Part shown: positions 2,215 to 40,419 of the stretch, one piece after another
How the letters are laid out: each line of letters starts with the position of its first letter
Numbering within the stretch: the first letter of the stretch is position 1
Sequence record: NC_024124.2
Length of the DNA: 64,000 nt
Source: Escherichia phage vB_EcoM_JS09
Strand: one strand, 5' to 3'
The notes under the pieces: generated by a model
Database searches by the model: none
Told to the model about the DNA's origin: nothing
The model's input: the letters and a program-made list of their open reading frames with translations, nothing else
Position numbers and translations under genes: made by a program

Positions 2215-2223
2215 GGAAACATT

Positions 2224-3171
2224 ATGTACAATATTAAATGCTTGTCCCAAGAAGAACAGTTAGAAGCTTATGGCCTGGTTGAATCAGGCAAATGGACTCG
2301 TAAAGAAATTGCCGATTACTTCGACATTTCAACAGATACTCTTCGTAAGATTGTTAAGAATTTTAAAGCAGAAGGCGTTGTCCCTGAAGCAAACGATGCC
2401 TCTTATGTAATCGAAGAAGTTCCAGAAAATGATGAACCTATTATCGGCGGACATCGTCCTGAAATCGTATGGAACGCGTCATCTAAATTTATTTCAATTA
2501 TTGAAGGACGCGTAGCATACAATGCGACTCCATCAAGTCATGCAAATTTTGAAGAAATTAAAGCTAATCTGGTCGCAGGAAACCTTAATAAAGCTGTCGA
2601 ACTTATTAACATCAAGAAAGCTATTAGTAAGTTTGTTGACGGTAATGTTGTTATTGAAGGTGGTAGTTTATTTTATCAAGGTATAGAGATTCGTTCTGGT
2701 CTGGTTAATCGTATTATTGATTCTATGGAAAAAGGCGAAGACTTTAAATTCTATCTACCGTTCCTTGAAAACCTGTTAGAAAACCCAAGCGAAAAAGCTG
2801 TACAACGTTTATTCGACTTCTTGGTTGCAAATGATATTGAAATCACTGAAGATGGGCATTTCTACGCGTGGAAAGTAGTTCGTAAAGATTATTTAGATTG
2901 CTATAGCGGTACATTTGATAACTCACCAGGTAAAGTTGTTTCAATGCCTCGTACTCGTGTTAACGATGATGATACACAAACCTGCTCCCGTGGTCTACAT
3001 GTTTGCGCTAAATCGTATATTCGTTACTTTGGTTCTAGCTCAGATAAAGTTGTTAAGGTTAAAGTTCATCCACGTGATGTTGTGTCCATCCCAGTTGACT
3101 ATGGCGATGCTAAGATGCGTACTTGTCGTTATGAAGTAATTTCAGACGTTACTGAATTATTTGCAGAATAA
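2224..3171 (+). CDS. rIIB: rIIB protein
   Basis: 315-aa ORF, AAGGA SD upstream; matches recalled T4 rIIB (312 aa); followed by a UUCG terminator. Confidence 0.9.
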   Translation: MYNIKCLSQEEQLEAYGLVESGKWTRKEIADYFDISTDTLRKIVKNFKAEGVVPEANDASYVIEEVPENDEPIIGGHRPEIVWNASSKFISIIEGRVAYNATPSSHANFEEIKANLVAGNLNKAVELINIKKAISKFVDGNVVIEGGSLFYQGIEIRSGLVNRIIDSMEKGEDFKFYLPFLENLLENPSEKAVQRLFDFLVANDIEITEDGHFYAWKVVRKDYLDCYSGTFDNSPGKVVSMPRTRVNDDDTQTCSRGLHVCAKSYIRYFGSSSDKVVKVKVHPRDVVSIPVDYGDAKMRTCRYEVISDVTELFAE

Positions 3172-3176
3172 TAATT

Positions 3177-3199
3177 GGGGACTTCGGTCCCCTTTTTTT
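3177..3199 (+). terminator. rho-independent terminator (UUCG hairpin + U-tract) after rIIB
   Basis: GGGGAC-TTCG-GTCCCC followed by TTTTTTT. Confidence 0.8.
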
Positions 3200-3213
3200 C
3201 TTTAGGGGTAATT

Positions 3214-3501
3214 ATGATTCATCCATTTGACGTATCAGAATCCAAAATTGCTAATCTTCGTGGTCATCATAAGTGTAAATCAGTTTATTGTGCTAAATTG
3301 GTAAAACATCCTGGCGATGCACACTATGGTTGGTTAGAATGCGACGAAGTTGTTATTGAAATCCCACCGGTAGATGCAGAATATCTTGAAGAAGGTGACC
3401 GCATTTATTTTGGCGAACTACACATCAGAGGTATCTATGGTAAAGACGAACTTGGGACTGTTGAGACTGAAGAATCTTCCGACATTTATCCTGTCGAATG
3501 A
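3214..3501 (+). CDS. hypothetical protein
   Basis: Track ORF 3175 starts at TTG inside the rIIB terminator; first ATG with AGGGG SD is at 3214 (MIHPF...); acidic C-terminal half reads like real protein. Confidence 0.4.
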   Translation: MIHPFDVSESKIANLRGHHKCKSVYCAKLVKHPGDAHYGWLECDEVVIEIPPVDAEYLEEGDRIYFGELHIRGIYGKDELGTVETEESSDIYPVE

Positions 3502-3517
3502 GTTTTTGACTAGTGAA

Positions 3518-3994
3518 ATGAAGGTGAAGATTGCTGACACTGCTCGGTATTCCCTGAGCCAAAATCCTGACCAAAACAAAGAAGATGTAGTTCGACGTTG
3601 TAAGGTTGCGGTCTTTGCAGAGTATGTAGTAGCAAATTGGCTAGACGGATATGTTAATAAAGGTATTGAAGACGTAGAAGACCCGTACACGTATGCATGG
3701 GACGTGTTAGCCCATCCCAAGTATTGTGGAATTCGTGTAGAAGTCAAGACACACCAGATAGATTCTAAATGGATTTCTGTTACCACAGGATACAGTGGTG
3801 ATTATCCAGGTGGCAACGGAATCAACATAGGGCCCTTCTTGAACCATCGAGTCGCAGATTGCATTATTATATTAGATGTCAAAGAAACCTCACCTGACGT
3901 CTTCTCTTATTCTATAAAGTTCGTGGGAGACCATGAAGACCTAAAGAAAATCGTCCGCAAGAGCAACTACAACGGCTGGTATCTTCATCTTTAA
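3518..3994 (+). CDS. hypothetical protein at the position of T4 denB (endonuclease IV); start uncertain
   Basis: Track ORF 3374..3994 overlaps the previous ORF by 128 nt; first non-overlapping ATG is 3518; an alternative start at 3437 has an AGAGG SD and would give 185 aa (the T4 DenB length); identity rests on synteny only. Confidence 0.35.
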   Translation: MKVKIADTARYSLSQNPDQNKEDVVRRCKVAVFAEYVVANWLDGYVNKGIEDVEDPYTYAWDVLAHPKYCGIRVEVKTHQIDSKWISVTTGYSGDYPGGNGINIGPFLNHRVADCIIILDVKETSPDVFSYSIKFVGDHEDLKKIVRKSNYNGWYLHL

Positions 3995-4007
3995 TTTCAT
4001 AAAAGTG

Positions 4008-4036
4008 TTTACAACTAAGTAGGACTATGATATAGT
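4008..4036 (+). promoter_or_regulatory. early (sigma70-type) promoter with dyad symmetry around -10
   Basis: TTTACA-N17-TATAGT with TG at -15; 8-bp perfect inverted repeat TAGGACTA (4020..4027) / TAGTCCTA (4036..4043). Confidence 0.6.
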
Positions 4037-4062
4037 AGTCCTATCTAAAAGAGGATAACATC

Positions 4063-4326
4063 ATGAAATTTAAATTTTTCTACGCAAAACATAAAGTGAC
4101 CGGTGAGTTTGTTTCAATGTACAACACCGCAGATGACGAAGGGATGATTTATACCCATTTAGGTCTATCTCATTGGGACTCGGACGTGCCTTATATGTCA
4201 TCTGAAGCCGAAATAACTCGTCTGGTTAATGGACATATGAACGACCATTTTAATGTTATTCTTTCTAAAGACCTTAAAGAGGTTATCAACAAAGGATACA
4301 TGGAACTCGCGGAAGTTGAGATATGA
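4063..4326 (+). CDS. hypothetical early protein
   Basis: 87-aa ORF, GAGGA SD, preceded by early promoter 4008..4036. Confidence 0.5.
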   Translation: MKFKFFYAKHKVTGEFVSMYNTADDEGMIYTHLGLSHWDSDVPYMSSEAEITRLVNGHMNDHFNVILSKDLKEVINKGYMELAEVEI

Positions 4327-4409
4327 GTTCTAAAATGTGGATCGGAATATGGTTGCTTAGTATCCCAATGATTTGTATAATATTTTCAATTGTGTTGAGG
4401 TACTTATGA
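4323..4409 (+). CDS. small hydrophobic peptide (28 aa)
   Basis: ATGA overlap with the upstream stop; sequence MSSKMWIGIWLLSIPMICIIFSIVLRYL is a single predicted TM helix. Confidence 0.3.
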   Translation: MSSKMWIGIWLLSIPMICIIFSIVLRYL

Positions 4410-4516
4410 AAAATGCACTTCTTATTGTACTAAGAACAATTTGTGATACGGGTTTTTACATTGCATGTTCGTTCACTGGAACATGGTTGGCTTTAACATA
4501 TTTTAATGTAATTTAA
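4406..4516 (+). CDS. small hydrophobic peptide (36 aa)
   Basis: ATGA overlap with the previous ORF; GAGGT SD 5 nt upstream; hydrophobic. Confidence 0.3.
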   Translation: MKNALLIVLRTICDTGFYIACSFTGTWLALTYFNVI

Positions 4517-4519
4517 TTG

Positions 4520-4548
4520 TTTACATCACGGTAGGATTATGGTATAGT
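4520..4548 (+). promoter_or_regulatory. early promoter with dyad symmetry around -10
   Basis: TTTACA-N17-TATAGT; inverted repeat GTAGGA (4531..4536) / TCCTAC (4551..4556); near-copy of the 4008 promoter. Confidence 0.6.
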
Positions 4549-4576
4549 AGTCCTACTGAAACATGAGGAACACAAA

Positions 4577-4777
4577 ATGGCTAAGCTTTTTAAAGACGTT
4601 GAAATTGGTGAAAAATTTGTTCTGAATAATGGTCAGCAGCTTATTCGTGTAGCTTCTATCGCCGGACAAACTCATAACTGTATCGCCCCAACGTGTTGGA
4701 CCCGATTCTTTATTGAGGATGACACTGAATGTTTAACTGTTGAAGAGCTTTTTGAACGTTCTGATATGGCCGAATAA
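4577..4777 (+). CDS. hypothetical early protein
   Basis: 66-aa ORF, GAGGA SD, preceded by early promoter 4520..4548. Confidence 0.5.
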   Translation: MAKLFKDVEIGEKFVLNNGQQLIRVASIAGQTHNCIAPTCWTRFFIEDDTECLTVEELFERSDMAE

Positions 4778-4780
4778 AAT

Positions 4781-4809
4781 TGTACAAACTCTTGAGAGCA
4801 GAGTATAAT
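4781..4809 (+). promoter_or_regulatory. early promoter with dyad symmetry around -10 (upstream of ndd)
   Basis: TGTACA-N17-TATAAT; 8-bp inverted repeat TGAGAGCA (4793..4800) / TGCTCTCA (4809..4816); loop GAGTATAA. Confidence 0.6.
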
Positions 4810-4853
4810 GCTCTCATGGATTACAAAAACATTAATCAATTGAGGAAATTAGC

Positions 4854-5300
4854 ATGTCCAAATATTTAACTCGTAAAGACCTTCTGGCAGTTGGCGGTGA
4901 AGTTGTTGCAGTAGTTCGTAACGGCGAATACGGTTCTGAAGTTTCTAAAGAGTTTCGTTCTCGTGAAGGTTTTTACTTCTTTGTTAAAGGTTCATCTGAC
5001 TGGCGTCAAGTAGCAGCACGATTCTTTGTAGGACGTCAACGTTCTAAACAAGGGTTGGATGCAATTCTTTCTCACATTCGTCAAGGCCGTTCGCAACTAG
5101 CCCGTACTATGGGCACTAACAATATTGAATATGATGTAATCTTTGTTGCAGCTAAGAACATGAAACCACTGACCACCGGTTATGGTAAAGGTCAATTGGC
5201 TCTGGCATTCACTCGCAACCATACATCAGAATATCAAACACTCACTGAAATGAACCGTCTTCTGGCTGATAATTTCAAATTCATTCTGCAGAGTTACTAA
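4854..5300 (+). CDS. ndd: Ndd nucleoid disruption protein
   Basis: 148-aa ORF; matches recalled T4 Ndd (151 aa) over [11 protein letters not shown]...[14 protein letters not shown]...LADNFKF. Confidence 0.8.
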
Positions 5301-5352
5301 TTTATACGGGCCTATTAAGTTGGGCCTTTAATTTATTTTTGAGGTAATTAAA

Positions 5353-5502
5353 ATGGTAGCATGGATTATTGCATTGCTGTGTTGGTCGTTTTTATTCGTT
5401 AACACTTTAGTTACAGGCGAAACAACAGTATTTCAACAGGCTGTGTCACAAGGTACCTTAGCGGTCTTAGCTCTTCTTAACGTATTAAAAGGCGAGCAAT
5501 GA
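5353..5502 (+). CDS. small membrane protein (49 aa)
   Basis: GAGGT SD 7 nt upstream of ATG; hydrophobic N-terminus; lies where T4 has ac/52.1-type small genes. Confidence 0.35.
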   Translation: MVAWIIALLCWSFLFVNTLVTGETTVFQQAVSQGTLAVLALLNVLKGEQ

Positions 5503-5639
5503 TTAAGAAAATCTTAGCAGGAGCCTTCGGGCTCTTGTTGTTGCTTACGGTTCTGTACTATGGTGTGATGTTTGGACTAATCCAAGTAGTGCTTTTCATT
5601 TCAGATATTATAATGGCTATTCGTTCATTAATATGGTGA
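5499..5639 (+). CDS. small membrane protein (46 aa)
   Basis: ATGA overlap with the previous ORF; strongly hydrophobic; ends 5 nt before gene 52. Confidence 0.35.
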   Translation: MIKKILAGAFGLLLLLTVLYYGVMFGLIQVVLFISDIIMAIRSLIW

Positions 5640-5643
5640 AAAT

Positions 5644-6969
5644 ATGCAATTAAATTCTCGTAATCTAAAAAGTATTATTGATAACGAAGCCTTAGCATAT
5701 GCGATGTACACCGTTGAAAACCGTGCAATCCCAAACATGATTGATGGATTTAAGCCGGTTCAACGTTTTGTGGTTCATCGTGCGTTAGATTTGGCTCGTG
5801 GTAATAAAGAAAAATTTCATAAACTTGCGTCAATTGCAGGCGGTGTTGCAGATTTAGGTTATCACCATGGTGAATCTTCTGCACAAGATGCAGGTGCATT
5901 GATGGCTAACACATGGAACAACAACTATCCACTGTTAGATGGCCAAGGCAACTTTGGTTCTCGAACAGTTCAAAAAGCTGCAGCATCTCGTTATATTTTT
6001 GCTCGTGTAAGTAAAAATTTCTATAACGTATATAAAGATACTGAATATGCTCCAGCTCATGAAGATAAAGAACACATTCCACCAAAATTCTATCTTCCTA
6101 TTATTCCGACAGTTCTTTTGAATGGTGTCTCTGGTATTGCAACTGGTTACGCAACAAATATTCTGCCTCATAGTTTTAAATCAGTCAAAAAGGCTGTATT
6201 ACAAGCTCTTCAAGGTAAAAATGTCACTAAGCCAAAAGTTGAATTCCCGGAATTCCGTGGTGAAGTACATGAAGTTGATGGGCGTTATGAGATTCACGGA
6301 ACATATAAGTTCACATCTCGCACTCAAATGCAGATAACTGAAATCCCATATAAATTCGACCGTGAAACGTATGTGAGTAAGGTTCTTGACCCGTTGGAAG
6401 ACAAAGGTCTAATCTCATGGGAAGATGATTGCGGTGAACACGGCTTTGGGTTTAAGGTGAAGTTCCGTAAAGAGTACTCGCTTCCTGATGATGAAGAGCT
6501 ACGTCATGAAAAAATCATGAAAGATTTTAGTCTCATCGAACGTCGTTCACAAAACATCACAGTGATTAATGAAAAGGGTAAATTAGCTGTCTATGATAAC
6601 GTAGTGGACTTAATCAAAGATTTTGTTGAAGTCCGTAAGACTTACGTTCAGAAACGTATTGACAACAAAATCCTTGAATCTGAAAAAGCATTTAAACTGG
6701 CTTTTGCTAAGGCACACTTCATCAAAAAAGTTATCAACGGCGAAATTGTGATTCAGGGCAAGACTCGTAAAGCTTTGACTGAAGAGCTAGCACAAATCGA
6801 AATGTATAAAGAACATGTCGATAAACTGGTAGGTCTTAACATCTTCCATATCACTTCCGACGAAGCACGTAAACTAGCAGAAGAAGCTAAAGCTAAGAAA
6901 GAAGAAAATGAGTATTGGAAGTCTACTGATGTTGTGACAGAGTACACTAAAGACTTGGAGGCACTTTGA
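5644..6969 (+). CDS. 52: DNA topoisomerase II medium subunit
   Basis: 441-aa ORF matching recalled T4 gp52 (442 aa). Confidence 0.9.
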   Translation: MQLNSRNLKSIIDNEALAYAMYTVENRAIPNMIDGFKPVQRFVVHRALDLARGNKEKFHKLASIAGGVADLGYHHGESSAQDAGALMANTWNNNYPLLDGQGNFGSRTVQKAAASRYIFARVSKNFYNVYKDTEYAPAHEDKEHIPPKFYLPIIPTVLLNGVSGIATGYATNILPHSFKSVKKAVLQALQGKNVTKPKVEFPEFRGEVHEVDGRYEIHGTYKFTSRTQMQITEIPYKFDRETYVSKVLDPLEDKGLISWEDDCGEHGFGFKVKFRKEYSLPDDEELRHEKIMKDFSLIERRSQNITVINEKGKLAVYDNVVDLIKDFVEVRKTYVQKRIDNKILESEKAFKLAFAKAHFIKKVINGEIVIQGKTRKALTEELAQIEMYKEHVDKLVGLNIFHITSDEARKLAEEAKAKKEENEYWKSTDVVTEYTKDLEAL

Positions 6970-7045
6970 GTGCCCTAGCCTTAGGATTTCTCAGTGCAAT
7001 AGCTGCACTAGTGATTTGGCTATATTGGTTGGACAAACATGATTA

Positions 7046-7061
7046 GGGAGCCGAAGCTCCC
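7046..7061 (+). terminator. GC-rich hairpin after gene 52
   Basis: GGGAGC-CGAA-GCTCCC followed by TTTGTG; the UUCG loop is on the opposite strand. Confidence 0.5.
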
Positions 7062-7088
7062 TTTGTGCATTTTTTCCTCACAAAACAG

Positions 7089-7116
7089 TTTACACGTGCT
7101 TCAAACATGATATTAT
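7089..7116 (+). promoter_or_regulatory. early promoter with embedded MotA-box-like TGCTTCA
   Basis: TTTACA-N16-TATTAT preceded by TG; TGCTTCA at 7097..7103. Confidence 0.55.
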
Positions 7117-7164
7117 AGACCTATCAAAACAAAACAACCAAATTGGAGAAATAAAATGTCTAAA
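7097..7164 (+). repeat. direct repeat copy 1 (promoter-SD-start cassette)
   Basis: About 90% identical to 7419..7484, including the -10, SD GGAG and first codons ATGTCTAAA. Confidence 0.7.
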
Positions 7165-7371
7165 ATGAAATTAACCCAAAACACAACTACTCGTTTCGGT
7201 AAAGTTAAACCTGGTATGAATGCTCCCCGTAAAGCACTTGTTGAAGAATTAAATTTCTTAGAAGTTGAAATCAATTCTTTAGTGGTTCGCGGTTCAAATG
7301 GACATCATTTAGAAAAGCTTCGTTCTAAAAAGGCAAAACTTATTGGCCTTATTAAAGAAATGAGTTTGTAA
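7156..7371 (+). CDS. hypothetical early protein
   Basis: 71-aa ORF with GGAG SD; shares its promoter/SD/ATGTCTAAA start cassette with motA. Confidence 0.5.
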   Translation: MSKMKLTQNTTTRFGKVKPGMNAPRKALVEELNFLEVEINSLVVRGSNGHHLEKLRSKKAKLIGLIKEMSL

Positions 7372-7410
7372 ATTTTACCAGGGCTTTTGGAAAAAGAGCC
7401 CAAAATAAAG

Positions 7411-7438
7411 TTTACTTTTGCTTCAAACATGATATTAT
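7411..7438 (+). promoter_or_regulatory. early promoter with embedded MotA-box-like TGCTTCA (motA promoter)
   Basis: GTTTAC at 7410; TGCTTCA 7419..7425; TGATATTAT -10 at 7433..7438. Confidence 0.55.
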
Positions 7439-7484
7439 AGACCTATCAAAACAAATACTAATTTGGAGAAATAAAATGTCTAAA
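7419..7484 (+). repeat. direct repeat copy 2 (promoter-SD-start cassette)
   Basis: Near-identical to 7097..7164. Confidence 0.7.
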
Positions 7485-8108
7485 GTTACTTACATCATCA
7501 AAGCTTCTGAAAACGTTCTGAATGAAAAAACTGCTGCAATAATGGTTTATATCATTAAGAACAACTTCACCACTGCTGCCAATGTCCGTGAAGCTCTGGA
7601 AGCAGAATACAATGCATCGGTTGTTAACTCTAACATTGGTGTATTGATTAAGAAAGGTTTAGTCGAAAAATCCGGTGATGGACTTGTAGCAACAGGCGAA
7701 GCAATGGATATTATCCAAAAAGCTGCAGACCTATTTGCTCAAGAAAATGCTCCAGAACTTCTTCAGAAACGTAACACCAGAAAAGCACGTGGAGTTACTC
7801 CTGAAATGCATGAATTAGCAAACTTTGTTTTTGAAAATATTAAAGATAAAGTTGAAGTTAAAGAAATTGGTGAAAACCGTAGTAACTTAGAAGTTCGATT
7901 TGCAAAACGAGTTCTAGGTATTCGTCAGATCGAAATTCGTCGAGATGGCGCTCTTAGAATCTTTGCATACAATATGTCAGAAACTGAATCAAAGCTGTTT
8001 ACTTCTCTTGAAAATGATGTTAAGATTAAGATCGGTGGTAAATATACCTACATTGACTTCCCTAATGTGTCCAAAGAAATCATTACCCTTGTAACTAATG
8101 TACTGTGA
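7476..8108 (+). CDS. motA: MotA middle-transcription activator
   Basis: 210-aa ORF matching recalled T4 MotA (211 aa). Confidence 0.85.
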   Translation: MSKVTYIIKASENVLNEKTAAIMVYIIKNNFTTAANVREALEAEYNASVVNSNIGVLIKKGLVEKSGDGLVATGEAMDIIQKAADLFAQENAPELLQKRNTRKARGVTPEMHELANFVFENIKDKVEVKEIGENRSNLEVRFAKRVLGIRQIEIRRDGALRIFAYNMSETESKLFTSLENDVKIKIGGKYTYIDFPNVSKEIITLVTNVL

Positions 8109-8118
8109 GGAATACATA

Positions 8119-8463
8119 ATGAATAAGCTGAATATTATTAACGAACTTCGTAAATGTGCAGAACCTACTCAGGAAGGATGGGATATTTGGTACCATGGAG
8201 CTTATCTTGGAACTATCGTTAAAGTTAGAGCTGGGTTATATTTAATTATTCGCGAAAATTCTGAATTCCATAATGGAGTAGCTCCTGGTGGTATACGTAA
8301 AAACTTTATGGCCGCGATCAGTTCATTTGTTGATGCAGCTTACGAAATCTATAAAGAAGATTATAAAGAATATCAGCAGTCACAACCGGTTATTCGTTCA
8401 ATTGGTGTTAACAAAGCTCAGCAGAAAACTTTGTGGCAACGTATTAAAGGATGGTTTAAATGA
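8119..8463 (+). CDS. hypothetical protein
   Basis: Track start 8098 overlaps the motA end; ATG at 8119 has GAGGA SD. Confidence 0.5.
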
Positions 8464-8921
8464 AAACTTTTAAAGAACGTTTAGCTCTGTTAGATAAAGC
8501 TTTGTCGCGTGAGACTCCGGAAAGTCTGGCTGCTAAATTAGCTTCTTACGGTGGTGAATATACAGAACAAAATGTTTTAGATGAAGTTCCTGAAATCTGT
8601 TGGCAGACTCTGTATTGGGATGAAAACCAAAAGTATCAACGACGAATTGTCTGCGCAGCCAACCGTTTTAAATTAAAAGATGGACGAACTCTTATTATTC
8701 CAGGTGCTCGTCATTATTCTAAAGATATGGCAGAAGTTTTAGATGTAGTTAAACCTCAATTAGTTACTCAACAAGTTTGTGATGATGACCAAGGGTTTAT
8801 TGACCAATATAGTAATTATTGGACACGTGAAGAAGCAATGATTATTGCAACTTACGCTGGACAAGTACGTATTGAACGTGGTGGTAATGAAAAAGAACTT
8901 TACTCTGAGGACCTTTACTAA
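8460..8921 (+). CDS. hypothetical protein
   Basis: 153-aa ORF, ATGA-coupled to the upstream gene. Confidence 0.5.
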
Positions 8922-11511: not shown

Positions 11512-14500
11512 TGCTAAACGAACTATATAGTTAAAAGCAACGTTTTTAACTGTGTTTTCTGTATTACCTGTACTATTTACAGTGATAGTATGACCGTGCG
11601 AACCAATTGCAACAGTATGAGAATGAGCACCAATACCTACCGAATGGGTATGAGCACCAATACCTACAGTATGAGCATGGTTACCAGTAGCGCTAGTAGT
11701 TCCTGACCAACTATGGGTGTGGGCACCGTCTGAAGAAGTTTTGGCCATATTCGACGATGCAGTAGCACCGCTCACGGTTCCAGTGATTTTAGCGTTGCCG
11801 TTTGGACCCGCACTATTGTATCCATCATAGAATATGCTAGTGGGTATGCCGCCTTGCATCTGAGGGCCTGAACGCGCGTGTTGGTGAGCACCAGCGGAAC
11901 TAGTATTACCACTCACTGTATGGTTATGGTTGCCAGTGGTACTACTTGTCTTAGTACCATAATCAAAGCTTGAAGTCGTTTTGCTACCGTAATCAAAACT
12001 AGAAGTGGTCTTAGTACCTAAATCTGTGCTTGATGCACTTGCACTATGGCTATGTGACTTAACACCGTCTGCTTCTGTACTTAATACAGCACGCCCAGAT
12101 GGTTTACCCTTGATAGTTTGACCACGCATATCAGGCAGAGAGCCGGAAGGATACACAGCAGCTAACTTAGGATACAATCCAGCATCAAATGTTTGACCTT
12201 CCATTATGGCATAACCTTCAGGAGGTGTATCAGTAGGCCAAGGAATCGGAGCACCAATTGGATAACTTGAGACAATATCCGTCTTAAGGTTATTTATTGT
12301 GGTATTCAAGTTAGCAAAATTACCAGAACCACCAGTGATATTACCATCAGTACCAATACGAACATTACCAGCGCCTAATTTACCAGGAGAATAAAAATCA
12401 CCGTTTTTATTAAATTCCCATCCAAGATCCTTTATAACAGCACCAGTAGAAACGCCGTCACCACCTTCATGATAATGAACTCTAAAGTTACCACCATTAA
12501 TTAAAGTACCAATAGAATAGCAACTATTATTTTGAACGTATCTTTGTTTCACAATAGGAACATAAGTGCTTGTATCTGTTCTATCAATATTCATATAGAA
12601 CGGAGCACGAACGTTTTCATTATTTTGTGAAGCAAAAGAACCGGCTCCAGCAGGTCGTGCAGTATCAGTACATTCAGCGTCGATATATGCCGATTGTCCT
12701 AATTGCATACGGTAATTAGGAGAAATGCGACTATGACTAGTTATAACAACAAGTTTACTATCATTATCAACGGTCACCATATTACCGCCTGCACCGTCAT
12801 CACCTAACGTGACGGAATGACGCATTTGAACCATACCGTTATGAAGTGCGATGCTCAATGGACGAAGATTACCTATTTCACCATTTTCTCCTTGGTCTTT
12901 AAGAGTAGGAATAATGTGCAATGCCGTTTCTGAACGACGGAAAATTGCGCCATATTCGGCGTTCCAAATTCTCAATGCATTTGCTGTTCCACCAAATTTA
13001 GCTTGTCCGTTTACAGATAATCCATTATTTGCAACTAAACTTGATTCACTAACAATAGAACCGGCCGATATAATACCACCACCCACACGTAAAGCGCCAG
13101 AAATTCTAAATTGAAGAGAACCCACAGTTTCAGAACCCGTTGGAGCTAAACGTTGAGAATAAAAATGATAGCCCTGGCCGTCATACAATTCAAATACGGT
13201 TTCACGATTACCGGCAGTAGGGTCGAATGCATTACCCCAAGCTTTCATAGTCAGATAACTTTTATTTTGTCCTGCACGGGTCCCGGCGTTCCATTGGATA
13301 GTTCTCGAGCCATCAACTTTGCTAGGGGCACCAAATTTAAGGCCTTCGGTATTATTAGAACTATTTAAAAATAATTCGTTGTCTAATTTAACAGGTTGGA
13401 TAGAAGAAATAGTGCCGTCAGCATAAAACTGTACATTATTAGAGCCAGTTACCAATTTCAAAATACCGGGGTTAACTTCCATGCCTTCTTGGGTATTAAT
13501 GTTAGTTTTGCCTTTACCACGGAAATAGTGGTTCATTTTACCGCCTGAGTTATAGCCAATATGCGTCTGACCGTCTCCAGCATTGTTTTCATCAGCTTGT
13601 GTTTGAACTGATAAAAATGCAACGTTCGTTCCAGGCATAATCCATGTTGTACCTTGGTCTTCTGAGCGTCCAAATAATGCTTTACGAGTACTACGGAAAC
13701 TATCAGGAGCAATAGAAGCAACAGAATTCCAATTACCTACTAAATCATAAACACCTTGCTTAATATATTTTAAACCGGTTGCAGCATCACCCAAAGCAAT
13801 ATATCTTTCTCCCATTGGAGTAGGAGAACCATAGTTGTTAGTATTTTCATCAGCGGTAATTGTGCCAATAGCAAGTGAACGACGTAATACCATTGCGCCA
13901 TCATTACGAAGACCCATTAATTTAGTAGTAAGTGTATTTCCGGTCCACCAAGAAATTTCATCATTCTTACCAGTTTGAGCTGAAGCGATTTCATGGTAAA
14001 TAGTTCCGCCTGATTTAGCTCGAACTTTACGAAGATAGTTTATACCATTTTCTTCGCCTGTTCCAGGATAAACATATTGAACTAGTGATTGTGAATCATA
14101 TTGTCCGAATGCTTTTGTGTCCAAAACAATGGTTTTCGTATTAACTTGTGGAGCAGAAACTATACCATTGGCAGAGTTAATATTGCCTGATGCAGAAATA
14201 TTACCTGCGCGGACCTCAATACTACCAGAATCTACAATAAAATTACCATTACGGTTAAAGACCCAGTGTTTAGAATTGTCTGGAGTTGTAGAATCAATAT
14301 AATGAACTCTAAATGAGCCTTCGCTTACTAGTGTACCTACTGAAAAAGTACCGTCTTTATAACGTTGCTTAATCAAAGGGTGGTATTCAGAAGTTGAAGT
14401 AGTTGAACTCAAATCTGTAAAGATAGGGGCTTTATTCAAATGTTGGTTAGCCCAAGCGCCATTTCCAGCGGTTTTTGGCAAGAATTCGATATACTTTCCT

Positions 14501-14751
14501 GCATAAACAAACTGGTTTCCATTAAGATTATATGAGCCGTTTTGTAAATAATCACCATTTTGAGTTACATTACCGTTAATATCACCACCCTTAGCAAAGC
14601 CTAGGCTAATAATATTACCGAGGTCATCTTTAGTAAAAAGAGTTCGATCTTTTAAGTTTATCGCTAATTCGCCTTCGGCTAATTGTGCTGCAGTAGGATT
14701 AACTCCTGCTACTTTGCTTCTTTTAAATTGTATCTGTTTTAATGTAGCCAT
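11509..14751 (-). CDS. 37: gp37 long tail fibre distal subunit (receptor-binding)
   Basis: 1080-aa ORF (T4 gp37 is 1026 aa); C-terminal His-box repeats (GAHTHS/GAHSHT/GSHGHT). Confidence 0.9.
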
Positions 14752-23898: not shown

Positions 23899-24303
23899 AT
23901 GGAAATCGGAAAATCTTATATCATTAACCCTTTATTTAAAGATGACTTTGTTCAAGAAGCACCACACAATAACGCTAAGATGTTAAAATTGATTGAACTC
24001 CACGGGCCTAGTTTTGTTGTAAACGGAATGGAACCTGATTATGATAGCGATACGTCAAACGTAGTAAGTGTAACTATGGAAGATGGTACTGTATGTTCTG
24101 CCGGTGGTGAAATTGAAACTTATTTTGAGATTTATCCTGACGAGTTCAAATACTTTATTGAGTACTTTACTGAGGTAACTTTAGAAAAGCCTCAACCTAC
24201 TAACGAAGGTATAACTTTAGGTGTAACAAAAATCCATTGTATCGTAGATGAAACCAACGTCGACGAAATCATCAAACTTTTGCAAAAAACTTTTAAAAAG
24301 TAG
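23899..24303 (+). CDS. hypothetical protein (frd.3 position)
   Basis: 134-aa ORF, GAGGA SD, early promoter 23842..23869. Confidence 0.5.
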   Translation: MEIGKSYIINPLFKDDFVQEAPHNNAKMLKLIELHGPSFVVNGMEPDYDSDTSNVVSVTMEDGTVCSAGGEIETYFEIYPDEFKYFIEYFTEVTLEKPQPTNEGITLGVTKIHCIVDETNVDEIIKLLQKTFKK

Positions 24304-24332
24304 TGTACAATCAGATAGGGTTATGTTATAGT
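24304..24332 (+). promoter_or_regulatory. early promoter with dyad symmetry around -10
   Basis: TGTACA-N17-TATAGT; inverted repeat ATAGGG (24315..24320) / CCCTAT (24335..24340). Confidence 0.55.
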
Positions 24333-24367
24333 AGCCCTATCAAATCAAAAGTGAAGCGGAGAATAAA

Positions 24368-26647: not shown

Positions 26648-28903
26648 ATGCAAGTAACTAAGAGCAGTGGTGTATCCCAAAATTTTGATGCACAGAAAAT
26701 TATTCAAGTATTAACTTGGCAATGTGAAGGAACACAAATCGACCCATATGAATTGTACGAAGAAATTAAGACCCATCTTGTCGATGGGATGAGCACCAAA
26801 GATATTCAGAAGATTTGTATTAAAGTTGCAGCTAACTCGATTTCTGTCGAAGAACCCGATTATCAATATGTTGCCGCTAAAGGATTAATGTTTGCACTTC
26901 GTAAAGATGTATATGGACAGTTTGAACCTCCTGCTTTTATCGACCATATTTCTTACTGTGTTAATGAAGGCAAATACGATCCCGAGTTGTTGTCTAGATA
27001 TTCTGCAGAAGAAATCATTTATCTTGATTCTCAGATTAAACACGAGCGAGATTTCGACCTGACTTATGCTGGTGCTATGCAGCTTAAAGAAAAATACCTG
27101 GTTAAAGATAAAACAACTGGTAAGATTTATGAAACTCCCCAGTTTGCTATCATGGCTATTGGTATGGCCTTACATCAAGACGAAACTCATGACCGTTTGA
27201 AACATATTATTCGTTTTTATGATGCCGTTTCTACTCATCAAGTTTCATTGCCTACTCCAATTATGGCAGGTGCTCGTACTCCAACTCGCCAGTTCTCTAG
27301 TTGTGTAGTTATTGAAGCCGGTGATTCGTTAAAATCTATTAACAAAACTTCAGCATCAATTATTGAATATATTTCTAAACGAGCTGGTATAGGTATCAAC
27401 GTTGGTATGCTTCGTGCAGAAGGTTCTAAGATCGGTATGGGTGAAGTTCGACATACGGGTGTTATTCCATTCTGGAAACATTTCCAAACTGCAGTAAAAT
27501 CTTGTTCTCAAGGTGGTATTCGTGGTGGTGCTGCTACAGCGTATTATCCGATGTGGCACTTAGAAGTAGAGAACCTATTAGTTCTGAAAAATAATAAAGG
27601 TGTGGATGAAAACCGTATTCGACATATGGACTACGGAATTCAGATTAATGACCTTATGATGGAACGCCTTGGTAAAAATGATTATATTACTTTATTTAGC
27701 CCTCACGAAATGTCAGGCGAACTATACTACTCGTTCTTTGAAGATCAAGATAAATTCCGTGAGCTTTATGAGAAAGCTGAAAAAGACCCAACAATCAGAA
27801 AGAAAAGAATCAAAGCACTAGAACTCTTTGAATTGTTCATGACTGAACGTTCTGGCACTGCTCGAATTTATCCACAGTTTGTTGACAACACGAATAACTA
27901 TACTCCATTTATTCGCGAAAAAGCTCCAATTCGCCAGAGTAACTTATGTTGTGAAATCGCTATTCCAACTAATGATGTGAATGGGCCTGATGCTGAAATT
28001 GGTTTATGCACGTTATCTGCCTTTGTATTAGATAAATTTGATTGGCAAGACCAAGATAAAATTAATGAACTTGCTGAAGTACAAGTACGTGCACTTGATA
28101 ACCTGTTAGACTATCAAGATTATCCGGTTCCAGAAGCTTTAAAAGCTAAAAAGCGTCGAAACCTCGGCGTTGGTGTGACGAACTATGCTGCATGGTTAGC
28201 TTCTAACTTTGCTTCATATGAAGACGCTAACGATTTGACTCATGAATTGTTTGAGAGATTGCAATATGGCCTTATCAAAGCTTCAATCAAACTCGCCAAA
28301 GAAAAAGGACCTTGCGAGTATTATTCAGACACTAAATGGTCTAGAGGCGAATTACCTATCGACTGGTACAATAAAAAGATTGACCAAATCGCAGCCCCGA
28401 ACTACGTCTGTGATTGGGAAGAACTTCGAGCTGAACTCAAAGAACATGGAATTCGTAACTCAACGTTGTCTGCACTCATGCCTTGTGAGTCAAGCAGTCA
28501 AGTATCGAACTCTACAAATGGGATTGAGCCCCCGCGCGGTCCAGTAAGTATTAAAGAATCTAAAGAAGGCAACTTCCGACAGGTTGTTCCTAATATCGAA
28601 CATAATATGAGTCTTTACGACTATGCGTGGAAACTTGCTAAGAAAGGTAATAAACCTTATTTGACCCAAGTTGCTATCATGTTGAAATGGGTGTGCCAAT
28701 CTGTTTCTGCTAATACTTACTATGACCCTGCAGTATTTGAGAAAGGTAAAGTGCCAATGTCAGTAATGCTTGACGATCTACTTTACTTCTGGTACTTTGG
28801 CGGAAAAAACCTCTACTATCATAACACTCGTGATGGGTCAGGTACAGATGACTATGAATTAGAAACACCTAAAGCTGAAGATTGTTCTGCTTGTAAGCTT
28901 TAA
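26648..28903 (+). CDS. nrdA: ribonucleotide reductase large subunit
   Basis: 751-aa ORF (T4 NrdA 754 aa); class I RNR motifs. Confidence 0.9.
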   Translation: MQVTKSSGVSQNFDAQKIIQVLTWQCEGTQIDPYELYEEIKTHLVDGMSTKDIQKICIKVAANSISVEEPDYQYVAAKGLMFALRKDVYGQFEPPAFIDHISYCVNEGKYDPELLSRYSAEEIIYLDSQIKHERDFDLTYAGAMQLKEKYLVKDKTTGKIYETPQFAIMAIGMALHQDETHDRLKHIIRFYDAVSTHQVSLPTPIMAGARTPTRQFSSCVVIEAGDSLKSINKTSASIIEYISKRAGIGINVGMLRAEGSKIGMGEVRHTGVIPFWKHFQTAVKSCSQGGIRGGAATAYYPMWHLEVENLLVLKNNKGVDENRIRHMDYGIQINDLMMERLGKNDYITLFSPHEMSGELYYSFFEDQDKFRELYEKAEKDPTIRKKRIKALELFELFMTERSGTARIYPQFVDNTNNYTPFIREKAPIRQSNLCCEIAIPTNDVNGPDAEIGLCTLSAFVLDKFDWQDQDKINELAEVQVRALDNLLDYQDYPVPEALKAKKRRNLGVGVTNYAAWLASNFASYEDANDLTHELFERLQYGLIKASIKLAKEKGPCEYYSDTKWSRGELPIDWYNKKIDQIAAPNYVCDWEELRAELKEHGIRNSTLSALMPCESSSQVSNSTNGIEPPRGPVSIKESKEGNFRQVVPNIEHNMSLYDYAWKLAKKGNKPYLTQVAIMLKWVCQSVSANTYYDPAVFEKGKVPMSVMLDDLLYFWYFGGKNLYYHNTRDGSGTDDYELETPKAEDCSACKL

Positions 28904-32657: not shown

Positions 32658-32944
32658 TTAAATTAACCGCAGTTGTATTATCTATTGGCATTTTGGCCGG
32701 ATGTGCCCAGGATGTGCCTTTAAGCCCTAAAGAAACTTTACATCCGCCATGGCCAGAATCTATTGTTGAATATAACCAGAAATGGCAAGTAAAGGTTATT
32801 GATGGTAATCCATGGGTTGGAATGCCATTTGAAGACTCTCAAGAATTTCGTATCTGGTTAAACGACGTAAAAAGATATGTACATGACCAGAAGACTATGT
32901 TATGTTATTATCGTAGTGGTTTAAAAGAGGAAAAATGCCAATGA
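32654..32944 (+). CDS. o-spanin (Rz1-like outer-membrane lipoprotein; T4 pseT.2 equivalent)
   Basis: 96 aa; lipobox LSIGILAGC; ATGA-coupled to the i-spanin. Confidence 0.65.
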   Translation: MIKLTAVVLSIGILAGCAQDVPLSPKETLHPPWPESIVEYNQKWQVKVIDGNPWVGMPFEDSQEFRIWLNDVKRYVHDQKTMLCYYRSGLKEEKCQ

Positions 32945-33159
32945 CTAAAGAACAGCATGAATACATTAAAGGGCTTATCTATGAATCTGAAATGGCGGCC
33001 ATGATTTACGGGCGACAGATTCAACGATTAGAATCTTTGCCTCCGACTAATGACCGATTGTTAGTTCAGTCTCGTGCTAATCTGAAAAATGAATATCAGA
33101 ATAAGTGGGCAGTAGCGACTAAAGCTCTTCACGAGTATATTGAATCTTTAGTAAAATAG
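32935..33159 (+). CDS. hypothetical protein
   Basis: 74-aa ORF overlapping the o-spanin stop. Confidence 0.5.
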   Translation: MPMTKEQHEYIKGLIYESEMAAMIYGRQIQRLESLPPTNDRLLVQSRANLKNEYQNKWAVATKALHEYIESLVK

Positions 33160-33188
33160 TTTACAAACTCTCAGGAGCAGAGTATAAT
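33160..33188 (+). promoter_or_regulatory. early promoter with dyad symmetry around -10
   Basis: TTTACA-N17-TATAAT; inverted repeat AGGAGCA (33173..33179) / TGCTCCT (33188..33194); paralogue of the 4781 promoter with compensatory arm changes. Confidence 0.6.
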
Positions 33189-33216
33189 GCTCCTATGGAT
33201 AATTGAGGAAATCTAA

Positions 33217-33515
33217 ATGAAAACATTACTAGAGAATTACATCAAACGGTCTGATGAGTATATTGATATCTGTCGTGGAATGTCACTCGGCAATTATGAC
33301 AAAGATGCAGCAAAGGCACTAGATGAAGCAGGTAAAGCTCTTCGTAAAGCTGCTAAAGAAAAAGGGTTGGATTTGCAACAACTCAAAAGTCATATGATTA
33401 AATTTATTTCTTCAAACGTTAGAAGTACGTCAATTAATAAAAACGTTGCTGAAATTAATAAAGACCGGCGCGAGCATAACATTCGTATTCTTGAAATTTT
33501 CTTAGGAATAAAATA

Positions 33516-33516
<1 letters not shown>
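33217..33516 (+). CDS. hypothetical protein
   Basis: 99-aa ORF, GAGGA SD, early promoter 33160..33188. Confidence 0.5.
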
Positions 33517-34602
<1,086 letters not shown>

Positions 34603-35579: not shown

Positions 35580-35699
35580 TGAGAGCTATCTCATTACTAT
35601 CGAGAATGGTCATAAATCTGAGCACTACCAACTTAGCCTGTCTAATCCGGTTAAAGGTATTGTTGAATCAGAATCTGTTTATATCTCCTAAGGATTGTT

Positions 35700-36692
35700 A
35701 TGTTACCTGTCATCAGAAAACTTATTTCTCCAAAAGAACTGGCTGAGATTATTCCTTTGTCGGAAGCTTACGCATCACAAGTGGCTTCTCATCGCGAACA
35801 AGTTAATTCGATTATGAACGGTGAAGACCCACGCAAACTTATTGTTGTAGGTCCTTGTTCAATTCATGACCCTATTGCTGCTGTTGAATACGGCAAACGT
35901 CTGGCTGAACTTCAAACTCGTCTTCCTAATGTTCTGTTAGTGATGCGCGTTTATTTTGAAAAGCCTCGAACTACCGTAGGTTGGAAAGGTCTTGTAAATG
36001 ATCCATATCTTGACGGAAGTTTTGATATGAACCACGGTCTTATAGTTGCACGAACATTGTGTCGTAAACTTCTACGTATAGGACTTCCATTAGCAACTGA
36101 AGTATTAGACCCATTCACGATTAAGTATCTTTCTGGTATTTTCTCATGGGTTGCTATTGGCGCCCGTACGACTGAAAGTCAGACACATCGTGAAATTGCT
36201 TCAGGTCTACCGATGTGCGTAGGCTTCAAGAACGCAACCAATGGTTCTATTAAAGTAGCTACAGACGCGATGTATAGTGCCGCCTGGCCTCATCGGTATA
36301 TGGGTATGGACGTCGATGGTACTGTAGGCATTGTTGAAGCTGAAGGTAATCAGAATACGCATATCGTATTGCGTGGCGGGACCAACGGCCCGAACTATCA
36401 TTCTTCTGATATTCAAGAAGCTTCTAACAAAGCAAGGGCAGTAGGTCTGAATCATTATGTAATGGTTGACTGTAGCCATGCAAACGCTGATGGACATTAT
36501 AGCAATCAAATTGGTATTGGTAAAAATTTAGCAGCTAATGATTTGGTCAAAGGAATTATGATAGAATCATTCCTACATGAAGGAAATCAAAAAATTTCCG
36601 ATAATATGTCCTATGGCGTTTCCGTTACCGATGCGTGCATCAGTTGGGAACAAACTAAAGAGCTGTTAACTTATATTAATAAGGTTCAATAA
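35700..36692 (+). CDS. 3-deoxy-D-arabino-heptulosonate 7-phosphate (DAHP) synthase, class I (AroG/AroF/AroH-like)
   Basis: 330-aa ORF with AAGGA SD; hallmark motifs shared with E. coli AroG: VVGPCSIHD, RVYFEKPRTTVGWKGL, WVAIGARTTESQ, HIVLRGG, ESFLHEGNQ, VTDACISWE; the metal-ligand positions (Cys, His, Glu, Asp) are all present. Confidence 0.85.
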   Translation: MLPVIRKLISPKELAEIIPLSEAYASQVASHREQVNSIMNGEDPRKLIVVGPCSIHDPIAAVEYGKRLAELQTRLPNVLLVMRVYFEKPRTTVGWKGLVNDPYLDGSFDMNHGLIVARTLCRKLLRIGLPLATEVLDPFTIKYLSGIFSWVAIGARTTESQTHREIASGLPMCVGFKNATNGSIKVATDAMYSAAWPHRYMGMDVDGTVGIVEAEGNQNTHIVLRGGTNGPNYHSSDIQEASNKARAVGLNHYVMVDCSHANADGHYSNQIGIGKNLAANDLVKGIMIESFLHEGNQKISDNMSYGVSVTDACISWEQTKELLTYINKVQ

Positions 36693-39280: not shown

Positions 39281-39308
39281 TTTACTTTGGTACAGGTTAT
39301 GTTATTAT
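39281..39308 (+). promoter_or_regulatory. early promoter with 9-bp dyad symmetry around -10
   Basis: GTTTAC 39280; TATTAT 39303..39308; perfect inverted repeat GGTACAGGT (39289..39297) / ACCTGTACC (39311..39319). Confidence 0.6.
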
Positions 39309-39349
39309 AGACCTGTACCAACAAACAACTTAAACATCTGGAGAATAAA

Positions 39350-40365: not shown

Positions 40366-40395
40366 TTTACATCCAAGGACGGATTAGAGTATAAT
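40366..40395 (+). promoter_or_regulatory. early promoter
   Basis: TTTACA-N18-TATAAT. Confidence 0.45.
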
Positions 40396-40419
40396 GATTT
40401 CTTTAGTAAGTGGAAAAAT

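Follow-up and report, generated by a model that had tools for sequence, protein, structure and literature searches.

A covarying hairpin around the −10 box of predicted early promoters in Escherichia phage vB_EcoM_JS09 and its relatives

Introduction

Can one short stretch of phage DNA serve as a strong promoter and also encode a structure that forms in a single strand? This question is raised by two predicted early promoters in a 64,000-nt stretch of Escherichia phage vB_EcoM_JS09 (NC_024124.2), hereafter the window. The two sites, copy 1 and copy 2 (Table 1), lie about 28 kb apart, and each contains an inverted repeat around its −10 box. The arms of the repeat differ between the copies, and each copy is self-complementary. 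An earlier sequence-only reading took this to mean that the dyad is under selection, and suggested that the copies could act as substrates of recombination. We examined the conservation of the pairing in related phages, the strand on which it is maintained, the molecule that may fold and the role of the cassettes at gene boundaries.

Results

Two predicted early promoters with an embedded hairpin

Both sites have a sigma70-type −35 box, a 17-bp spacer and a perfect TATAAT (TGTACA-N17-TATAAT in copy 1; TTTACA-N17-TATAAT in copy 2), and are predicted promoters. The hairpin has 8 bp in copy 1 and 7 bp in copy 2, where the pair just outside the stem is C.A. Its loop, GAGTATAA, spans −15 to −8 and holds most of the −10 box, and its 3′ arm reaches from that box's final T to the predicted +1. 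Because the 3′ arm extends only to +1, the hairpin would not be contained in the promoter's own transcript, but only in transcripts arriving from upstream. Folded as RNA, copy 1 reached −14.6 kcal/mol (z −4.2 against shuffles) and copy 2 −12.2 kcal/mol (z −2.0). A 30-nt pattern in which the variable arm positions were masked matched the two copies alone in the window, and nothing in 100 shuffles. A covariance model, R1, built from the family described below, scored copy 2 at 71.9 bits and copy 1 at 69.8 bits; other hairpin promoters of the window scored weakly. Rfam 15 gave no match at or above the gathering score anywhere in the window.

Both promoter strings occur in the window as the sequence-only reading had quoted them, and their arm differences do leave each copy self-complementary, through a reciprocal change of G-C to A-T at one pair and of A-T to G-C at its neighbour. 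Three details needed correction. In register, the copies agree at 30 of 36 positions (83%), or at 35 of 41 with the conserved TGGAT added, rather than at ∼90%. The second string comprises 37 nt, with 33195 and not 33194 as its last position. Finally, the gene downstream of copy 1 is ndd and not gene 52.

Nolan et al. (2006; PMC1524935) predicted early promoters in RB69, including the counterparts of both copies. Copy 1 is identical in RB69, where it is Pe:165022. The orthologue of copy 2 is Pe:136687, with the arms CGGGAGCA/TGCTCCTA and a G.T at the pair where the window has A-T. Like T4-type early promoters (Pe; PMC1524935), the two sites have a −35 box of the GTTTAC type, a 17-bp spacer, a −10 box and an upstream A-tract. 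Nolan et al. assign the additional conserved positions (GT-rich 5′ of −12; C at −3 to −1) to the promoter consensus, and the terms stem-loop, palindrome and inverted repeat do not occur in their paper.

Early promoters combined with a stem-loop that often overlaps the −10 box have been described as promoter-early stem-loops (PeSLs) in RB49/phi1, T4/PST and KVP40/nt-1 (Arbiol et al. 2010, PMC2839356; extended by Comeau et al. 2014, PMC4122927). These papers note G-T pairs in the stems, report that one stem-loop lowered the expression of a downstream lacZ, and demonstrate recombination between PeSLs. The two sites share with PeSLs a sigma70-like early promoter, an A/T-rich stretch upstream of it (GAATAAAAT at copy 1, AGTAAAATAG at copy 2) and a stable stem-loop over the −10 box, in a class whose stems hold G-T pairs. 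Like PeSLs, they also lie between genes, after the stop codon of one and before the Shine-Dalgarno (SD) sequence and start codon of the next. Further shared features are repetition, adjacent small open reading frames (ORFs) of unknown function, and an association with variable regions and with recombination junctions at the boundaries of insertions, deletions and replacements. The stem motif given there for T4/PST, AGNA-loop-TCNT, fits AGGA...TCCT here. By these features, both sites are classed as members of the published PeSL class and not as a new kind of element.

Unlike the published PeSLs, the sites belong to the RB69/JS09 group and their stems lack a U-tract. The PeSL label "effective terminator" rests on a single poly-G/poly-C stem, and caution is needed before it is applied to these stems. 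Quantified covariation, an asymmetry of G.T over A.C and a fixed register were not found in the passages on PeSLs consulted here (PMC2839356; PMC4122927). To what these describe, the present analysis adds a quantitative covariation test, a sense-strand asymmetry, a fixed register, with the loop centred 2 nt before the middle of the −10 box and the 3′ arm reaching to +1, and stems without terminator tails.

Covariation of the arms across a promoter family

We scanned IMG/VR and a metagenome collection using patterns that fix only the start of the spacer and the loop, leaving both arms free. Family members were chosen by their −35 context and a downstream GGA, without reference to the arms. The resulting 26 distinct sequences came from Mosigvirus, Dhakavirus (JS98, VR5, VR25 and IME341-type genomes) and Tequatrovirus (KIT03), and lay upstream of at least 10 different genes. 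Their arm states included TGGGAGCA/TGCTCCCA, TGGGACCA/TGGTCCCA, TGGGGTCA/TGACCCCA, TGGGAGTA/TACTCCCA and TGAGAGAT/TTCTCTCG, as well as several G.T variants. Positions outside the arms were nearly invariant.

Standard pairs occupied 98.1% of the 208 arm cells, compared with a mean of 86.0% in column-preserving shuffles, none of 500 of which was as high. When partners were slid out of register, 36-53% of cells paired. Changes had occurred on both sides at five of the eight pairs (26 cells), and the covariation score was 0.507 versus 0.268 in the shuffles (0 of 500). Copy 2 illustrates a stepwise path: the commonest family state at one pair is G-C, RB69 and vB_VIPECOMC06 have G.T (CGGGAGCA/TGCTCCTA), and the window has A-T (CAGGAGCA/TGCTCCTA). 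Aligning more homologues was the comparison on which the sequence-only reading had staked its claim of a selected, covarying dyad. In these homologues the arms vary yet stay complementary, which argues that the dyad is under selection. Together, these data indicate that selection maintains the pairing and not the sequence of the arms.

Two sets of sequences served for comparison. Eight matches to the same search pattern that lacked a promoter context showed no arm pairing. An unrelated, large promoter family with TACAAACTCT, used as a negative control, likewise showed none among the matches listed for TACAAACTCT-N11-TATAAT.

The spacer start TACAAACTCT also occurs in an unrelated phage group. 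More than 50 environmental viral contigs (L091-L202) carry there a very conserved promoter-like motif devoid of a dyad, cccgcT[TA]TACAAACTCTGC[CT]GCCTATGCTATAAT..AACATAGGAGA, directly before start codons.

Hairpins at the −10 box of other early promoters

Among 131 predicted T-even promoters, the positions of hairpin centres had a sharp maximum 2 nt before the middle of the −10 hexamer (43 of 131, with few per bin elsewhere). A second test used the RB69 sequence and the 58 early promoters published by Nolan et al., and was thus independent of our own promoter calls. Of the 58 promoters, 23, 10 and 7 had a stem around the −10 box of at least 6, 8 and 10 bp, respectively; the first count amounts to ∼40%. 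The corresponding means in 300 shuffles of the flanks were 7.8, 1.2 and 0.16 (maxima of 18, 5 and 2), and the same interval placed at other offsets gave 1-11, 0-3 and 0-1. Four RB69 promoters belong to the exact family (Pe:42515, Pe:72069, Pe:136687 and Pe:165022). Across all non-family promoters, 51% of cells paired in the fixed register versus 34-46% when slid. This excess is modest because many promoters have no hairpin or use other registers.

The window contains at least seven hairpin promoters. The hairpin at 4019..4044 has the same centre, relative to its −10 box, as those of the two copies. Together with 4529-4558 and 24298-24349, it belongs to another sequence family of the same architecture (..TAGGACTAT / gKtata / GTAGTCCTA..). 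Further stems of this architecture have 15 bp in KIT03 and 13 bp in Dhakavirus, and another is the window hairpin at 39287-39321. Between promoter families, stem length varies from 6 to 15 bp and loop length from 4 to 12 nt.

Strand asymmetry of the pairing

In the family, departures from Watson-Crick pairing were almost exclusively G.T or T.G as read on the sense strand, with 27 wobble cells versus 4 true mismatches. The same bias was present in the 131 distinct predicted early promoters, which represent 66 T-even loci: internal G.T pairs outnumbered A.C by 55 to 6, and the stem was longer on the sense strand in 36 cases versus 1. In RB69's 58 listed promoters, the counts were 30 G.T and 5 A.C. 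As estimated from the composition of the window, base composition could explain only a ∼1.2-fold excess of G.T. Two neighbouring promoters of the window folded at −13.2 (sense) versus −10.0 (antisense) kcal/mol (4019..4044) and at −16.1 versus −8.9 kcal/mol (4529..4558).

The bias of G.T over A.C argues for a single-strand hairpin on the sense strand, rather than for a duplex palindrome recognized by a symmetric protein or for a cruciform. The claim that the dyad is under selection is accordingly narrowed: the pairing is selected, but a symmetric dyad in duplex DNA is not what is maintained, since G.T is tolerated and A.C is not. The folded molecule is most likely RNA read through from the co-directional upstream gene.

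Position of the copies between genes

The stop codon of the ndd.1 orthologue (TAA, 4775-4777) precedes copy 1, whose −35 box begins 3 nt further on. Transcripts of this ORF would read through the copy 1 hairpin. At copy 2, the stop codon of the pseT.1 orthologue (TAG, 33157-33159) directly adjoins the −35 box. Downstream, ndd and the 99-aa ORF each have the SD sequence GAGGAAA, at 4842-4848 (SD/ATG span, 4842-4856) and 33205-33211 (33205-33219), respectively. The small ORFs near hairpin promoters are ndd.1, an RB69ORF270c-like and an RB69ORF231c-like ORF. A protein-anchored retrieval of orthologous loci from IMG/VR returned three for ndd and one for the 99-aa ORF, too few to use.

In the family, an SD-like GAGAG or GGAG also stands 8-9 nt before an ATG made by TATAAT and the G that follows it (4793-4812 and 33173-33191 in the window). 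A link to RegB through the GGAG in some left arms was rejected, as many members have no GGAG.

Discussion

Probable role of the hairpin: a boundary element in read-through RNA

At the level of sequence, the cassettes are promoter-like, show selection on pairing, are specific in strand and position, and lie at gene boundaries. We consider it probable that they are PeSL-type cassettes whose hairpin, in read-through RNA, acts as a boundary element that uncouples neighbouring messages, the RNA role being the part that we infer. One stretch of DNA would thus have two jobs. The duplex would be a strong sigma70 early promoter, which drives ndd in the case of copy 1 and the small ORF before pseT in that of copy 2. 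The single strand would form a hairpin. Polymerases arriving from ndd.1 or pseT.1 would pass the cassette, and in the nascent RNA the spacer (−23 to −16) would pair with the discriminator (−7 to +1). The resulting hairpin would have 7-8 bp, the loop GAGUAUAA and a 3′ end coinciding with the promoter's own +1. On read-through mRNA, it may serve as a pause site or partial attenuator and as a protective 3′-terminal hairpin. The upstream message would in this way be uncoupled from the downstream unit, whose expression would then be set by its own promoter.

Several points weigh against this reading. Family members are related by descent, so the cell counts overstate the number of independent events, of which at least seven separate double changes can be recognized by eye. 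The asymmetry is absent from the two window copies themselves, whose palindromes pair perfectly by Watson-Crick rules. G.T is the most stable mismatch in DNA as well, so a sense-strand DNA hairpin is conceivable. More than half of the early promoters have no such hairpin, which is thus not required for promoter function or read-through in general. Finally, no U-tract follows the stems, whose tails are UGGAUUAC and UGGAUAAU, and a terminator scan did not call the copies, though it called ordinary terminators nearby (3177-3192 after rIIB; 5308-5327 after ndd); efficient intrinsic termination is therefore unlikely. A literature search for mapped T4 3′ ends or transcription start sites bearing on read-through yielded nothing usable.

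A bolder proposal, which we regard as possible although doubtful, is that these hairpins are not terminators at all. Enclosing the −10 box in their loop, they would be dedicated to letting polymerase transcribe through a consensus promoter, and many T-even early promoters would use such a dual DNA/RNA code. The nascent hairpin would form just when a read-through polymerase has cleared the −10 box and +1. One effect could be to relieve or forestall sigma70-dependent pausing or capture at the consensus −10 sequence. The hairpin could also hide both the SD-like GGAG or GAGAG and the AUG of TATAAT+G from ribosomes on read-through mRNA, which we offer as an idea only. It could, in addition or instead, define a processing site, such that read-through and promoter-initiated mRNAs would have nearly the same 5′ end and the upstream fragment would keep a protective 3′ hairpin. 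An RNase E site at the GGAUUAU after the stem was considered, with RAUUW as the consensus, and was left as speculation, as sister families have A-rich tails.

Intercistronic hairpins of early mRNA that can define and protect upstream 3′ ends are exemplified by the RNase III sites of T7, which are long, imperfect duplexes of ∼20 bp not embedded in promoters. By contrast, the predicted hairpins described here are short and lie within promoters.

Alternative explanations

Taken literally, the original PeSL proposal would make the hairpin a canonical rho-independent terminator of the upstream gene. The hairpin does directly follow the upstream stop codon and, like an intrinsic terminator, would be a sense-strand RNA hairpin at the end of a cistron. 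One RB49/phi1 stem-loop, of the poly-G/poly-C type, cut downstream lacZ about as rrnB T1 did (PMC2839356). However, intrinsic terminators combine a G+C-rich hairpin with a directly following U-rich tract, and the stems here are short (7-8 bp) and moderately G+C-rich, enclose an 8-nt loop and continue as TGGATTAC and TGGATAAT; the tails of sister families are A-rich and likewise lack a U-tract. The scan that called the true terminators nearby passed over both copies. Moreover, T4 delayed-early expression relies on read-through of such regions, according to Hinton's review. We therefore regard this explanation as improbable.

We give equally little credence to a sense-strand hairpin of single-stranded DNA, extruded during replication or recombination, that draws structure-specific nucleases or stalls forks and makes the cassette a recombination hotspot. 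DNA hairpins tolerate G.T mismatches, and the cassettes do occur at insertion, deletion and mosaic boundaries. In RB49, a crossover was mapped inside the loop (PMC2839356). Nevertheless, plain homology explains the boundaries equally well. There is no known reason for folding on the sense strand only, and A.C mismatches on the complementary strand would make a cruciform asymmetric. A link to transcription is further suggested by the constant spacing from the −10 box and by a hairpin end that falls at +1.

A duplex-DNA operator, at which a dimeric phage or host protein over the −10 box would shut off the early promoter, is less probable again. Each copy is a perfect palindrome with the −10 region at its centre, and LexA and lambda-type operators similarly place a dyad on the −10 region of a strong promoter. 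In those operators the sequence of the half-site is conserved. Here, by contrast, the arms drift while their pairing stays, leaving no common half-site, stem and loop lengths vary between promoter families, and the mismatches are one-sided, which is unexpected for a symmetric duplex site. According to Hinton's review, shut-off of early promoters persists without ModA or AsiA by an unknown mechanism, and T4 early promoters hold unexplained extra consensus. These points keep a small door open for a regulatory reading, while the strand asymmetry argues against a duplex operator.

It is scarcely credible that the dyad is functionless in itself, the copies being alike by descent or gene conversion and their complementarity a by-product of consensus or chance. 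The family is clearly related by descent and almost invariant outside the arms, but its pairing exceeds that in the shuffled and slid controls, with multiple double changes and G.T intermediates. Unrelated promoter families and the independently compiled RB69 promoters are also enriched in hairpins at this register, and the large unrelated family with TACAAACTCT is unpaired among the matches listed.

Significance

The analysis shows a short piece of phage DNA that is constrained twice, by promoter recognition as duplex and by base pairing as a single strand. The double changes, G.U intermediates and strand asymmetry provide clean comparative evidence for a functional PeSL stem-loop. They support action on the sense strand, which the original PeSL descriptions assumed rather than demonstrated. 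The missing terminator tails narrow the question of what the stem-loop does.

Cassettes as module boundaries

The sequence-only reading had further proposed that the copies could be substrates of homologous recombination, and that breakpoints in these cassettes should be looked for. Breakpoints were found at copy 2 and at the motA cassettes, but none joins the two copies: a BLAST search for chimeric junctions in ∼160-170 related genomes detected neither recombinant junction of copy 1 with copy 2. The absence of such an exchange is unsurprising, since the 28 kb that would be lost or doubled by it include essential genes such as 52, 32, 59 and the tail-fibre genes.

Copy 2 is a mosaic boundary. 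The window and Mosigvirus vB_VIPECOMC06 are 98.5% identical up to 33203, ∼9 nt past the copy 2 hairpin. The next ∼500 nt cannot be aligned (window 33204-33698; L243 1395-1715), and homology resumes at the start of pseT. Two small window ORFs before pseT, the 99-aa ORF and the next, correspond to one divergent 100-aa ORF in vB_VIPECOMC06.

In the motA region, two direct-repeat cassettes flank a 71-aa ORF (7156-7371). Window 3000-7164 aligns with RB69 774-4936 and window 7409-8527 with RB69 4861-5964, with an overlap of 76 nt. RB69 has one hybrid cassette and no 71-aa ORF, which indicates an insertion or deletion bounded by the cassettes.

Three further cases concern the family cassette. In JS98 and VR5, divergence starts at the SD sequence of the cassette. 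In one metagenome contig, sequence from upstream of one locus runs into sequence from downstream of another, with the join exactly within the 49-nt cassette, although an assembly chimera is possible. At the e.7/e.6 junction, T4 has a different early promoter without a dyad (L237 3900-3975), whereas KIT03 (L012 20001-20085) and Mosigvirus carry the family cassette, with the arms TGGGAGTA/TACTCCCA or TGAGAGCA/TGCTCTCG. The promoter cassette has thus been swapped at this orthologous site, and T4 data on its own promoter there are not transferable.

We infer that the conserved cassette of ∼50-90 nt offers a patch of homology at which gene modules are exchanged, inserted and lost, as a secondary consequence. 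In phages of the RB69 group, some of them in use for phage therapy or typing, such cassettes would be predictable boundaries at which modules are exchanged, which is useful for annotation and engineering.

Features and relatives of the window

Table 1. Promoters, hairpins, cassettes and genes of the window discussed in the text
Feature	Position	Strand	Details
Copy 1, predicted early promoter with embedded hairpin	4781..4816	+	−35 TGTACA 4781-4786; −10 TATAAT 4804-4809; predicted +1 A4816
Copy 1 hairpin	left arm 4793-4800; loop 4801-4808; right arm 4809-4816	+	TGAGAGCA / GAGTATAA / TGCTCTCA; 8 bp
Copy 2, predicted early promoter with embedded hairpin	33160..33195	+	−35 TTTACA 33160-33165; −10 TATAAT 33183-33188; predicted +1 A33195
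Copy 2 hairpin	left arm 33173-33179; loop 33180-33187; right arm 33188-33194	+	AGGAGCA / GAGTATAA / TGCTCCT; 7 bp
Neighbouring early-promoter hairpin	4019..4044	+	GTAGGACTAT / gatata / GTAGTCCTAT; −35 4008-4013; −10 TATAGT 4031-4036; RB69 orthologue Pe:165795
Neighbouring early-promoter hairpin	4529..4558	+	CGGTAGGATTAT / ggtata / GTAGTCCTACTG, three G.T pairs; −35 4520-4525; −10 TATAGT 4543-4548; RB69 orthologue Pe:165283
Promoter of the same architecture	24298..24349	+	TGTACA ... TATAGT; arms TAGGGTTA/TAGCCCTA; covariance model 16.1 bits, E 0.13; RB69 orthologue Pe:145300
Hairpin of ∼12 bp enclosing −10 TATTAT	39287..39321	+	TTGGTACAGGTT ... GACCTGTACCAA; −17.9 kcal/mol, z −4.2
Promoter with loop GAGTATAA and degenerate arms	40383..40398	+	GGATTA/TGATTT, three G.T pairs; promoter and hairpin scans, covariance model
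78-bp promoter cassette, first copy	7087..7164	+	TTTACA, MotA-box TGCTT, TATTAT, SD, first codons ATGTCTAAA; RB69 alignment
motA-type promoter cassette, second copy	7409..7484	+	upstream of motA; RB69 alignment
ndd.1 orthologue	4577..4777	+	66 aa; co-directional ORF upstream of copy 1; RB69 annotation
ndd, nucleoid disruption protein	4854..5300	+	148 aa; downstream of copy 1; homologue and RB69 annotations
pseT.1 orthologue	32935..33159	+	74 aa; co-directional ORF upstream of copy 2
Hypothetical ORF, RB69ORF231c-like	33217..33516	+	99 aa; downstream of copy 2, upstream of pseT

Around the finding, 4 kb of the window match Escherichia phage vB_EcoM-ZQ3 at 99.3% identity, and 149 records span at least 80% of these 4 kb. 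ZQ3 has been assigned to Mosigvirus JS09, within the RB69 group of T4-like phages. Both ZQ3 and RB69 are collinear with the window between rIIA and a point beyond cd.

Three differences between these genomes were noted elsewhere in the window. A DAHP synthase gene (aroF-like; 35589-36688) is present in the window and ZQ3 and absent from RB69, whose flanking alignments abut with a 13-nt overlap. In ZQ3, nrdA is split by an insertion of ∼930 bp annotated as a putative homing endonuclease, which the window does not have (∼27982-28007 versus L001 27095-28024). The distal tail-fibre/adhesin region (11685-14554) aligns to ZQ3 with gaps and at 78-83% identity, compared with 95-98% in the rest of the window.

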